Below are positions 6,996 through 9,815 of a DNA stretch of 64,000 nucleotides, one piece after another. The notes under the pieces are model-generated. The model did not search any database, was not told the DNA's origin, and saw nothing but the letters and a program-made list of their open reading frames with translations. How positions within the stretch are numbered: the first letter of the stretch is position 1; each line of letters begins with the position of its first letter. A program made the position numbers and the translations under genes. The stretch is from an uncultured Verrucomicrobiae bacterium (lineage in GTDB: Bacteria; Verrucomicrobiota; Verrucomicrobiia; Limisphaerales; Palsa-1400), in NCBI GenBank assembly GCA_963707025.1, contig CAVPOM010000018.1:224001-288000 (forward strand), given 5' to 3'.

Positions 6996-7952
6996 TTATC
7001 CGTGGCGGCGCCGTTTTTCGCGCGTTTCAAAAAAATAGCCGAGGGCGGCGGCGTACGGCTGGTCAGTGCGCACTTCAATGGTGTCTATCTTGGCGGAACG
7101 CAGGGCGCGCAGCATGTCTTCCTGGTGGCGGGCGCGCCGTTCGGCAAAGGCGCGCCGCTTGCGCGCGTCGTGGGTGTTGATCTCGACCAACTCGCCCGTT
7201 TCGGCGTCGGTCAACAGCAGCCGGCCCAGGGGCGGCAATTCCATTTCGAAACGGTCCACCACCTGGATGGCGATGACGTCGTGGCGCCGGTTGGTCTGGC
7301 GCAAGGCGGGCAGGGAGCCGGATCCGAGCGTGGGCGAAAGCAAATAGCCTCCGGGCCGCTGGCGGGCGGCTTCTCCGGCCGGCGGGCGTGGCTCGAAGAG
7401 AAAATCCGAGATCACCACGACAATGGCGTGGCGGCGGGCCAGGCGGTTCAAAACATCGAGCGCTTCGCTAAAACGGGTCCCGCGCCGGGCGGGTTGAAAG
7501 AGCAGGATTTCGCGGATCACGCGCAAGACGTGGCGGCGTCCTTTTTTGGGCGGGATATATTTCTCGACCTCCTCGGTGAAAAGAATCAGGCCCACCTTGT
7601 CGTTGTTGCGGATGGCGGAGAAGGCCAGGACGGAGGCGATCTCGGCCGCCAGTTCGCGTTTGGTTTGCGCGCCCGAGCCGAAGATGCCCGAGCCGCTCAG
7701 GTCCACCAGGAGCATGAGGGTCAGCTCCCGTTCCTCCACGTATTTTTTAATGAAGGGATGGTTCATGCGCGCCGTGACGTTCCAATCAATGGAGCGGACT
7801 TCATCGCCGGGCTGGTATTCGCGCACCTCCTCAAAATTCATGCCCTGCCCCTTGAAGACGCTGTGGTACTGGCCGCCCAGGGTCTCGGTGACCAGGCGGG
7901 TGGTGCGCAGCTCGATCTGGCGGATTTTTTTAAGGATGTCGCGCGGGATCAT
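6996..7952 (-). CDS. DUF58 domain protein (MoxR-associated)
   Basis: MIPRDILKKIRQIELRT..GQYHSVFKGQGMNFEEVREYQPGDEVRSIDWNVTAR, plus DLSGS and VISDF. Confidence 0.95.
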   Translation of the reverse strand: MIPRDILKKIRQIELRTTRLVTETLGGQYHSVFKGQGMNFEEVREYQPGDEVRSIDWNVTARMNHPFIKKYVEERELTLMLLVDLSGSGIFGSGAQTKRELAAEIASVLAFSAIRNNDKVGLILFTEEVEKYIPPKKGRRHVLRVIREILLFQPARRGTRFSEALDVLNRLARRHAIVVVISDFLFEPRPPAGEAARQRPGGYLLSPTLGSGSLPALRQTNRRHDVIAIQVVDRFEMELPPLGRLLLTDAETGELVEINTHDARKRRAFAERRARHQEDMLRALRSAKIDTIEVRTDQPYAAALGYFFETREKRRRHG

Positions 7953-8001
7953 GGGGAATTGAGGATTGCGGATTGCGGATTCCGCGGGCGAATAACTCTG
8001 C

Positions 8002-8035
8002 TTGCGCGGGCGAATCCGCGCGGTAAATTAGGGCC
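8002..8035 (+). promoter_or_regulatory. Putative sigma70 promoter for a leaderless antitoxin transcript (cassette 1)
   Basis: TTGCGC-16 nt-TAAATT-6 nt-ATG; identical hexamers and spacing recur at 8794-8827. Confidence 0.65.
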
Positions 8036-8398
8036 ATGAGTGCGACAGAAATTCTTGCAGCAGCGAAGGCGCTTCCGCTCGAAGAGCGAATCGAGATTGC
8101 CCAAGGCTTGTGGGAAGACATTACCAGCAACGGATACGATCCCGATTTGACGCCGGAACAAACAGCGGAACTCGAGCGCCGTCTCGCTGACTTCGAGAAA
8201 AACCCCGGAGCCGGAATTCTCCTGGAGCAAGTCAAAGCCGAGTTGCGGCAACGCTTCCATTTCGATGACCGTTTGTCTCCAGAGCAAATCGCCGAACTTG
8301 ACCGCCGCGCAGAAGACGCATTGAAAAATCCCGGACGCGGAAAACTCGTTGACCAAGTATTTGCTGAAATTGAGGAACGCCTTCGCGCCAAGAAATGA
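8036..8398 (+). CDS. Addiction-module antitoxin with a duplicated C-terminal repeat
   Basis: ALPLEERIEIAQGLWEDI..LTPEQTAELERRL; the C-terminal unit occurs twice; ATGA overlap with the toxin. Confidence 0.85.
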   Translation: MSATEILAAAKALPLEERIEIAQGLWEDITSNGYDPDLTPEQTAELERRLADFEKNPGAGILLEQVKAELRQRFHFDDRLSPEQIAELDRRAEDALKNPGRGKLVDQVFAEIEERLRAKK

Positions 8399-8703
8399 CT
8401 TTGACGGTCATAGTCGAGGCTGACGCTGAACGGGACTGGGATGAGGCCGTGATGTGGAATGATGAGCGCGAACCAGGAATCAGTCATCGGCTCAATGTTG
8501 CGATTCGTGCAGTTCTTCAAACGCTTGCCCGACAGCCAGAACGATTTTCCGGCGCCACCCGGTTGACGCATAAAGCCAAAGTACCGCCGCCGTGGCCTTA
8601 CTCTGTTTATTTCACCATCAACGTGGAACATCGCGAAGTAAAGGTGCTGGCCATCTGGCACGGCGCGCGCAATCCCGCTGAACTGCGCCGGCGGCTGAAA
8701 TGA
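8395..8703 (+). CDS. RelE/ParE-family toxin
   Basis: AERDWDEAVMWNDEREPG..PERF..PWPYSVYF..VKVLAIWHGARNP. Confidence 0.85.
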   Translation: MTLTVIVEADAERDWDEAVMWNDEREPGISHRLNVAIRAVLQTLARQPERFSGATRLTHKAKVPPPWPYSVYFTINVEHREVKVLAIWHGARNPAELRRRLK

Positions 8704-8718
8704 AAAGCCCGCAGGCAG

Positions 8719-8780
8719 TTCGGTCGCGATGCGGTTCGTGCGAATCTCGATCTGGCGGATTTTTTTGAGGATTTCGCGGG
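8719..8780 (-). repeat. Diverged copy 2 of the DUF58 gene 5' end
   Basis: Encodes TREILKKIRQIEIRTNRIATE versus native PRDILKKIRQIELRTTRLVTE; shares AAAAAAATCCGCCAGATCGAG exactly. Confidence 0.92.
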
Positions 8781-8793
8781 TGGAAAACCGTGC

Positions 8794-8827
8794 TTGCGCG
8801 TCCAAGGGGGCATGGTAAATTAATGCC
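8794..8827 (+). promoter_or_regulatory. Putative leaderless promoter (cassette 2)
   Basis: TTGCGC-16 nt-TAAATT-6 nt-ATG. Confidence 0.65.
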
Positions 8828-9049
8828 ATGAGTTCGGAAACAATATTCAAAGAAGCCCGCGCACTTCCATTCGTGGAACAAATTGAGCTGTGCCGCAACC
8901 TTTGGAATGGAATCGTGGGTTCGCACGAACTGACGCCCGGCGAAGCGGAACTAATTGACCGCCGTCTGCAAGACCACCTGGAGAATCCCAACGACGTGGT
9001 TTCGTGGGAAGAAGTCAAAGCCAAGCTCGACGCGAAATACCGAAAATGA
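8828..9049 (+). CDS. Addiction-module antitoxin
   Basis: ALPFVEQIELCRNLWNGI..LTPGEAELIDRRL..NPNDVVSWEEVKAKL; paralog of 8036-8398. Confidence 0.88.
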   Translation: MSSETIFKEARALPFVEQIELCRNLWNGIVGSHELTPGEAELIDRRLQDHLENPNDVVSWEEVKAKLDAKYRK

Positions 9050-9345
9050 AACGCGGATTCGTCCTTCGCCGCGTCGCGGAACTGGAGTATGACGATTCCA
9101 TCGCTTGGTATGAAGGCGAACGGGAAGGCTTGGGGCAGGAATTTCGAGCCACCATCGAGAAATACTTTCACCGCATCGCCGAAACCCCCGAGCGGTTTCC
9201 GAAAGTCAGAGGCGAGGTCCGGCGAGCAGTCGTTCTCGGCCGCTTTCCGTATGTAATTCACTTTCTCGTCGAAAAGGATGGCATCGTGATTATGTCCGTA
9301 TTTCATACGAGCCGCGAACCGGAACAACTGAAATACCGGCGATAA
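9046..9345 (+). CDS. RelE/ParE-family toxin
   Basis: ATG at 9046 overlaps the antitoxin stop; AELEYDDSIAWYEGEREGLGQEF..PERFP..RFPYVIHF..IMSVFHTSREP. Confidence 0.9.
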   Translation: MKRGFVLRRVAELEYDDSIAWYEGEREGLGQEFRATIEKYFHRIAETPERFPKVRGEVRRAVVLGRFPYVIHFLVEKDGIVIMSVFHTSREPEQLKYRR

Positions 9346-9351
9346 GATTCT

Positions 9352-9414
9352 CGCGGTGCGGTTCGTGCGAATCTCGGTCTGCCGGATTTTTCTGGGAATC
9401 TCGCGGGGAATCAT
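9352..9414 (-). repeat. Diverged copy 3 of the DUF58 gene 5' end, including its ATG
   Basis: Encodes MIPREIPRKIRQTEIRTNRTA; its ATG overlaps the HNH gene stop (ATGA). Confidence 0.9.
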
Positions 9415-9806
9415 TTTCCTTTGCTCAACCGTATTTCGATGAATGCTGTCAATTCTTCTGGCGAAACCAATTTTGCTTCGATGCAGCGAATCAAAGTTCT
9501 GCGCTGTTTAACCATCCAATTGCTGTGTTTCAAAGCATCTGCAACTTCGCTCGCCGTCAACCCCAAACCATCGTGTTCAGCTTGATGGTGTTTTTCGCAA
9601 AGCGTAATCAGATTCTCGTCTAATTCATTCCACGGTTCACTGGTTGTGTAGTTGCGATGGTGAGCATTCAGGTCGCCAGCGTGGTCGCCTTCGGATTGGC
9701 AACGCCAGCCGTCACGTTCCATCATGATTTTGCGCTTTGCTCGCCAGCGCGGATCGTCAAAGAATTTCTGCGGAACGCGTGGCCGAGGTTTGTATTTAGT
9801 TGCCAT
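9411..9806 (-). CDS. HNH endonuclease-like protein
   Basis: DPRWRAKRKIMMERDGWRCQ..LNAHHRNY..NLITLCEKHHQAEH; visibly more AT-rich than the flanks. Confidence 0.85.
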   Translation of the reverse strand: MATKYKPRPRVPQKFFDDPRWRAKRKIMMERDGWRCQSEGDHAGDLNAHHRNYTTSEPWNELDENLITLCEKHHQAEHDGLGLTASEVADALKHSNWMVKQRRTLIRCIEAKLVSPEELTAFIEIRLSKGK

Positions 9807-9815
9807 ATTCCACGC

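Follow-up and report, generated by a model that had tools for sequence, protein, structure and literature searches.

The window analyzed here is a 64,000-nt stretch from the genome of an uncultured Verrucomicrobiae bacterium (contig CAVPOM010000018.1; source genome hereafter G000), and the subject is the junction between its moxR and DUF58 genes, read on the minus strand. The junction holds two backwards toxin-antitoxin (TA) cassettes, each headed by a 60-85-base copy of the start of DUF58, and an open frame that begins at such a copy and crosses both cassettes on the operon strand. The explanation that we favor, with a probability of about 0.6, is that this frame is likely translated solely to carry ribosomes across the insert, and that the copies likely arose by one-sided recombination and would afterwards act as homology arms. 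The relay frame started by the copy, apparently kept free of stops by selection, was the best-supported feature of the locus and had been missed by a first-pass annotation of the same DNA, whose interpretation overall was partly supported.

Start copies and stop-free frames at the moxR-DUF58 junction

Three copies of the DUF58 5' end on the minus strand had been proposed by the first-pass annotation, and they were borne out by alignment over 57 nt: the native one at 7889-7945, within the DUF58/VWA gene (6996-7952, minus strand; PF01882, PF13519), copy 2 at 8724-8780 and copy 3 at 9351-9407, all direct and with 81-88% identity to copy 2. Over nt 8-64 of the gene, copies 2 and 3 were nearer to each other (50/57 positions) than to the resident gene (46/57 and 40/57, respectively), also as previously described. 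Copy 3 extends over 9346-9414 (approximately nt 1-64/69 of DUF58) and starts the frame, and copy 2 (8704-8787), recognisable over nt 8-83 and with a decayed start codon, lies in frame with it, 627 nt apart. Between successive copies lies one antisense pair with the same promoter, as had been claimed, both pairs being assigned to TIGR02574/PF09720 (antitoxin) and PF05016 (ParE toxin): antitoxin 1 (8036-8398, plus strand), whose C-terminal part is present twice, with toxin 1 (8395-8703, plus strand; stop at offset 85), and antitoxin 2 (8828-9049, plus strand) with toxin 2 (9046-9345, plus strand; stop at offset 70 from the ATG of the copy). In both pairs the antitoxin gene overlaps the downstream ParE/RelE-family gene, an arrangement typical of type II systems, and both are predicted TA systems. 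Doubled or orphan antitoxins were also observed at other loci (L013, L035, L113). The predicted promoters, at 8002-8029 and 8794-8821 on the plus strand, consist of the motif TTGCGC-N16-TAAATT with an ATG 6 nt further on, a spacing that appears leaderless; the hexamer pattern was found one further time in the genome, and a promoter-like motif (loose pattern) preceded 68 of the 74 junction antitoxin ORFs.

The frame opens at the ATG of copy 3, which overlaps (ATGA) the stop of a sense ORF of 131 codons for a putative HNH-like nuclease (9411-9806, minus strand), likewise unremarked in the first-pass annotation. It passes through copy 2 in frame and remains open for 494 codons, down to nt 21-23 of DUF58 (7930-9414, minus strand); its peptide showed no Pfam match. 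The upstream anchor gene moxR, coding for an AAA+ ATPase (PF07726, E 4e-65), occupies 9816-10808 on the minus strand, with the ATG at 10808 as read from the letters.

The frame was compared among 190 loci from genomes and metagenomes (156 unique), mostly from Verrucomicrobiota labelled Limisphaerales or subdivision 3 where named; some loci are near-duplicates, and the counts given below therefore overstate independence. Segments spanning TA genes were stop-free in 42 of 42 cases (0 stops), while 7.8 open segments were expected after synonymous permutation with shuffled non-coding bases and 4.6 under pooled codon usage; the same two nulls expect 89-109 stops, and the other frames averaged 258. 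The register was invariant for toxins (36/36) and antitoxins (47/47), the stop-free parts included non-coding DNA and repeats in stretches as long as 558 nt, and the exact phase to the ATGA was held over many different lengths. Among 57 scored fragments, two partial ones having been skipped, the frame ended at the native ATGA overlap in 39, at nt 21-23 in 7, at the start of the next copy in 4, and earlier in 7. At the other end, the fragment ATG overlapped an upstream stop exactly in 26 of 51 cases and lay within 25 nt of one in 14 more, with no partner in 11. In a held-out test, 40 regions fetched from 67 multi-match genomes yielded 38 new loci, 20 of them holding 26 fragments; 13 of these frames ended at the native ATGA, 6 at the next copy, 1 fused in frame and 6 ended early. 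Early ends were traced in both sets (n = 12): in 10 a sense ORF of 138 or more codons took over, one stopped 30 nt before DUF58, and one was broken.

The same trend was observed in other comparisons. TA pairs of the same family were open in 4 of 14 cases at other sites, where they showed 26 stops in 2232 codons, vs. 10 of 10 at the junction. Single changes in the fragments were predominantly nonsynonymous (130 to 68 synonymous) vs. 65:613 in the native genes, and no stops were found in the fragments vs. 5.6 expected. In 19 of 42 fragment-free gaps of 4-200 nt, vs. 7.8 expected, a full mini-bridge linked the stop of moxR with the ATGA of DUF58. Taken together, these results represent strong comparative evidence that the open frame is under selection, as far as sequence comparison can tell. 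In the surviving joints it was shown statistically that the leftover start is coupled to an upstream stop, that the frame is open, and that it stops at the next start.

Four TIGR02574/ParE pairs located away from DUF58 have an open antisense frame (L193, L196, L216 and G000 C9:87900-88400). Four imperfect heptamer repeats were read directly before the DUF58 start of the window (7954-7981, minus strand), and pyrimidine-rich heptamer tandem repeats of differing sequence also lie between the TA promoter and the DUF58 ATG at L003, L004 and L030; gain or loss of one 7-nt unit would shift the relay frame. Directly upstream of the heptamers, the minus strand at 7975-7996 has a likeness to the opening ~19 nt of DUF58, possibly the trace of a fourth, very decayed copy. 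No terminator-like site was found at the copy, so that a role as terminator of the TA transcript is unsupported, and no Rfam structured RNA family matched in the region.

The genomic context suggests why such a frame would be selected. The genome is SD-poor, Shine-Dalgarno (SD)-like motifs preceding 12.6% of its ATG genes (control, 7%), and -4 overlaps dominated close gene pairs (338 such pairs in the genome). Some Verrucomicrobia are classed as SD-scarce in a passage of PMC10783764, and passages of PMC12548453 state that untranslated RNA invites Rho-dependent polarity and that short ORFs can serve solely for ribosome delivery. A rho gene is present in the genome. The coupling chain of the operon would be interrupted by 600-1500 nt of backwards cassette, and a copied start followed by an open frame would restore it; the frame is thus likely a translational relay that preserves operon coupling, by maintaining termination-reinitiation and/or by blocking Rho polarity for DUF58 and the bat genes that follow it.

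Several observations weigh against this explanation. The window alone is not significant (chance of an open frame, 0.065), and the loci share ancestry, so that 42 segments are not 42 events, most of them having the offset-85 joint. The window and three or four close relatives depart from the ATGA pattern, their frame stopping 23 nt into DUF58, a poorer geometry for reinitiation in the window, and reinitiation is described in part of PMC10666635 as needing very short distances, with coupling dropping steeply with distance. Four of 12 fragment-free TA loci lacked an open frame over the TA genes, 2 of 30 TA loci with fragments lacked one single frame over the whole array, and moxR 3' copies were in a coupled frame only sometimes. 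Antisense islands were not enriched for open frames genome-wide (22/173 vs. 378/1790, with a crude gene model), and relay frames as a genome-wide rule are accordingly unsupported; the relay is documented for the moxR-DUF58 junction only. The rho gene is in frameshifted pieces in this assembly. Regarding the copies, the first 28 codons showed no excess of synonymous conservation across species, the homogenisation expected from arm traffic thus not being seen, and the length of 57-90 nt is not predicted by simple homology-facilitated illegitimate recombination (HFIR), DUF58 being conserved to approximately codon 126. Two rho-like loci (G000 C4:691675-692918 and C4:477387-478153) each occupy three reading frames, either by assembly indels or as broken genes.

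Distribution, cargo and probable movement of the units

The host bacteria of these arrays are soil bacteria. The moxR gene was linked in 116 loci, 66 of them expanded and 50 with a gap of at most 150 nt, and copies of the start of DUF58, of the end of moxR, or of both occurred in 44 of the 66 expanded junctions vs. 0 of the 50 short ones. Among the expanded junctions, 38 had a DUF58 5' copy, 15 a moxR 3' copy, and 9 both, while the DUF58-copy profile had no match outside the junction in the 156 loci. Most fragments started at the ATG (53/59) and ended at nt 57-90 (55/59). The usual order was moxR, cargo, moxR-end copy, sense cargo, DUF58-start copy, antisense TA, and DUF58. The sense cargo was very diverse, including DUF4160/DUF2442, MazE/PIN, T5orf172, TPR, KilA-N, ankyrin, and many genes of no named family, and the 67 junction ORFs scanned included one IS200-like transposase and no integrase. 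The moxR-DUF58 junction is thus an integrase-free hotspot: cargo turnover between this pair of core genes is high (66/116 expanded), and the alleles have one slot for sense cargo and another for antisense TA genes.

The variable number and content of cassettes anticipated by the first-pass annotation was found across relatives, with 0-3 start copies (L218 carries three TA units and three copies) and diverse cargo. Its rule of one copy per cassette held in part, with as many copies as toxins in 24 of the 32 linked loci that bear toxins and not in the rest, and its view of the cargo as TA only did not stand, since 11 linked loci had a copy and no toxin. Toxins were often lost and antitoxins kept, which indicates that addiction is not needed to retain the unit. 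Close TA relatives within G000 were located at this junction only. Two or three matches were listed for 67 of 217 matching genomes, a figure that is not a prevalence because 18 of the 38 new loci fetched had no fragment. An empty junction was present in contigs of two sequencing runs aligned at 88% likeness; among the sequencing runs listed there was no RNA run and none with half of the words.

At L006, a collapsed allele, the moxR-DUF58 gap of 67 nt retains a toxin 3' end and the -35 box of the promoter, and 24 codons still connect the stop of moxR with the ATGA of DUF58. Gene-less units of ~200-400 nt, made of a DUF58 start copy and palindromic repeat DNA, occur at L228 (two units), L177, L090, L069 and L225, each with a frame open to the ATGA. 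As for the HNH-like ORF of the window, it matched weakly a part of the IscB model (27.6 bits vs. a cut-off of 175) and had no Pfam or PADLOC match; its only homologue in the 156 loci (74%) lies at the same junction, the rest of the genome has none, and the gene was rejected as a mobiliser of the array.

The origin of the units was traced through their copies and toxins. In the family-like group of the window (DUF58 > 76% identical; 53 of 146 loci), all 15 fragments matched foreign alleles better than alleles of their own group; elsewhere, copies were often near-identical to their own native gene (10/34 at 57-60 of 60 nt). The two toxins of the window fall into different clades, in which other families are also represented and which differ in junction offset: toxin 1 had 85% identity to the toxin of L156, from another lineage and with the same offset-85 joint, and toxin 2 formed a clade with L164, L098 and L187, all at offset 70 (support 100/100). 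These results agree with the first-pass statement that tandem duplication of the resident allele does not account for the array, and the foreign-allele matches together with the separate clades and offsets suggest that cassette and copy travel as a unit. The tree of 42 toxins required 10 host-group changes, at least 6 of them forced, with some clustering remaining (8/500 shuffles as low), and toxin identity was uncorrelated with host DUF58 identity (rho 0.02). Moreover, close relatives differed in cargo and copy number, the TA unit to which the HNH gene is joined at the copy in L124 is not the one found in the window, and L228 carries two tandem 272-nt units. There is consequently moderate evidence that units move with their copy and recombine at it.

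The copy had been regarded as a homology arm or an att-like site. The former role is plausible, because cassettes appear to move between lineages with their copy; the latter was not sustained, nor was the single conserved breakpoint that had been expected, since young copies (n = 32) had breakpoints at nt 43-85 and many different downstream sequences, which excludes a single att core. Even where copies were near-identical, no homology was seen beyond the ATG on the upstream side, and a joining of two junction alleles fits this better than a staggered cut. The alleles would have been joined by homology-anchored, HFIR-like illegitimate crossover or by single-crossover integration, with a remnant of 57-90 nt left behind from either the start of DUF58 or the end of moxR, and the leftover start would let host recombination stack, swap or excise units. 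Joints were found at varying positions, as in HFIR, but within a narrow length only; our guess is a compromise, in which the homology suffices for recombination but is not so long that the copy would fail to persist. A ComEC domain (comEC, E 3e-51) in the genome points to DNA uptake machinery, and the host may be competent.

In addition to this junction, gene-end copies were searched by k-mer and alignment scans over the 3902 predicted genes of the genome, with paralogues filtered; the signal was weak before that filtering. Non-paralogous copies of 3' ends lay mostly downstream, the insertion-type side (17 vs. 5 upstream), and those of 5' ends mostly upstream (18 vs. 5 downstream), with 0 and 2 mid-gene copies; many of the 35 insertion-side copies were weak or partial paralogues. 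Eight sites chosen for small cargo contained MNT-HepT, PIN (twice), PemK, MNT-HEPN, DUF4160, ORF6N, and one pair without match, the hosts being ilvD, LPG synthase, formamidase, parA, argG, ETF-QO (both ends) and carbonic anhydrase. The cargo was in sense direction and the copies were more decayed than those of DUF58. The duplication footprint is general in this genome, and the proposal of a landing pad specific to DUF58 is not supported, moxR 3' ends and the ends of other genes being duplicated too. At G000 C7:389776-391608 (L266), the ETF-QO gene has its ends duplicated on both sides, with the ORF6N gene behind the 5' copies and a PIN pair before the 3' copy. At C8:137404-140766 (L269) and C7:287282-288019 (L270), genes that look by eye like restriction-modification genes have 3'-end copies 2.5-2.6 kb downstream, which bracket the defence-like cargo.

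Known systems and rival explanations

An integron has an IntI integrase, attC sites and one fixed crossover point, together with a variable tandem cassette array. The integron-like array of the first-pass annotation survives only as the last of these, at a fixed locus. TIGR02249 (IntI) was below cut-off everywhere in G000 (genome 88% complete), none of the 22 PF00589 matches of the genome was on contig C18, and no attC R-box pair was found on either strand in 7881-9830 with a box pattern rather than a dedicated attC model, in line with the earlier statement that no integrase or attC-like site lies nearby; no bounding inverted repeats were among those listed. With IntI, attC/attI and a fixed crossover point all missing, the array is not an integron. 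TA cassettes with their own promoter in reverse orientation are a further likeness to superintegrons, and such cassettes stabilise those of Vibrio according to passages of PMC7167474.

Closer parallels were found in systems without integrase. TA islets free of mobile genetic elements (MGE), as described in parts of PMC5635113 and PMC13617665, share the variable cargo between two core genes, the TA-only islets and the orphan antitoxins after toxin loss; their flanking-gene double crossover, however, swaps alleles without duplicated gene ends, and neither gene-end copies nor relay frames appear in those parts of their description. The type VI secretion system immunity arrays of V. cholerae, likened to integrons and attributed to HFIR in passages of PMC5361080, also stack sequentially from a conserved anchor with members from different lineages, but there the anchor and the remnants belong to the effector system itself, whereas here the remnant is a piece of a housekeeping gene start, narrow in length and at the same time the opening of a relay frame. 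Start codons are the insertion sites of mycobacterial interspersed repetitive units (MIRUs), whose ORF couples to the target gene at -4 nt, sparing downstream expression (passages of PMC12548453). The coupling at -4 is shared by the relay frames (in the window itself the overlap is 23 nt), and the gene-less units at L177, L228 and L090 seem to behave alike, being the nearest thing to a MIRU at this junction. Unlike MIRUs, the relay ORF opens with the first 20-28 codons of the target gene itself, runs for 130-680 codons, crosses whole antisense genes with their own promoter, and is locus-specific instead of a dispersed repeat family (0 copies elsewhere in 156 loci). By analogy, the junction may work like an MGE-free TA islet hotspot, grow like HFIR-type arrays, and protect the host operon as MIRUs do. 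Elements of the type of e14 at icd also leave a displaced gene-end fragment flanking the insert and the gene intact, but they rely on an integrase of their own and a single fixed att core. In ambigrammatic narnaviruses, the opposite strand is reportedly maintained stop-free by selection and no function is known for the peptide, but these are RNA viruses of eukaryotes without operon coupling. In the open-licence literature, no description was found of gene-start copies launching stop-free frames across antisense genes, nor of TA genes with duplicated gene fragments or of antisense ORFs preserving coupling.

A bolder idea, advanced only tentatively, is an integrase-free cassette system, not described before, in which a 60-90 nt start copy acts as recombination arm and launches a dummy relay ORF, the copy being made by a dedicated length-measuring mechanism that works on gene ends throughout the genome. 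It is still more doubtful that a dedicated trans-acting enzyme inserts cassettes at gene ends and itself makes the 60-90 nt duplication, in an integron-like manner or as a very long target duplication. That enzyme would account for the narrow length of the fragments, for the genome-wide copies on the insertion-type side, for the copies near-identical to their own native gene and, possibly, for the 22 tyrosine recombinase matches; it is at odds with the scatter of breakpoints without a common junction motif, with homology that begins at the ATG, unlike that left by a staggered cut, and with the lack of an integrase in the junction ORFs scanned and of an IntI above cut-off. A single ancient duplication per junction, inherited vertically and kept native-like by gene conversion, is improbable and largely refuted: the frequent offset-85 joint and the partial clustering of toxins by host group would fit it, but the many distinct joints, the foreign affinities of the window's copies, the uncorrelated toxin and DUF58 identities, and the differences among close relatives do not.

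Concerning the frame itself, its length (up to 682 codons) and the native start context at its front could indicate a working protein or an antisense regulator, for instance of the TA pair, and one study reportedly found translated antisense ORFs under selection in bacteria. This is an improbable reading as well, if marginally less so than the ancient duplication, given that frame length and content vary freely, repeat DNA included, that the head peptide changes at a near-neutral nonsynonymous rate, that empty junctions manage the same with mini-bridges of 3-50 codons, and that no Pfam family was matched. A by-product of codon usage in GC-rich TA genes combined with shared ancestry is quite improbable: the toxins do lie in the register with the rarest antisense stops, and the per-segment chance reaches 0.6-0.8 in a few cases, the window alone being unremarkable; same-family pairs elsewhere, however, carry stops, and neither the open non-coding and repeat stretches nor the exact ATGA phase over many lengths would follow from it. 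Misassembly, which the first-pass annotation had named as a potential refutation, is very unlikely and the least credible of all. Frameshifts occur elsewhere in the assembly (rho) and no public contig covers the whole stretch, but the copies are just 70-88% alike, the same layout recurs in dozens of independent assemblies, and a 217-nt contig from one run crosses the HNH/copy 3 joint with 1 mismatch.

Neighbouring features and implications

Downstream of DUF58, the operon continues with bat-type genes at 6292-6987, 5294-6295 and 3354-5312, with VWA and weak BatA matches for 5294-6295. An ORF at 10922-12427, resembling by eye the large subunit of carbamoyl-phosphate synthase, has 501 codons, approximately half the usual length, and a clean stop, and is possibly a split gene. 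Short tandem repeats (7-mer, 9-mer) also occur at further gene junctions of the window, at ~14170-14260 and 15750-15860.

The arrangement described here suggests a testable answer to the question of how foreign genes enter the tightly coupled operons of SD-poor bacteria without silencing the genes downstream. If the frame is a relay, selection would preserve a frame without meaning on the operon strand and keep it free of stops even where it crosses antisense protein genes. In long antisense ORFs over TA genes, translation itself rather than the product would then be under selection, a point relevant both to annotation and to the debate on overlapping genes. Should the length-measuring cassette system exist, selfish and adaptive genes could pile up inside translationally coupled operons at no cost. 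The duplicated gene ends would represent a visible footprint of how integrase-free hotspots grow, and do not just swap alleles, and the relay layout suggests a design for polarity-free insertions.

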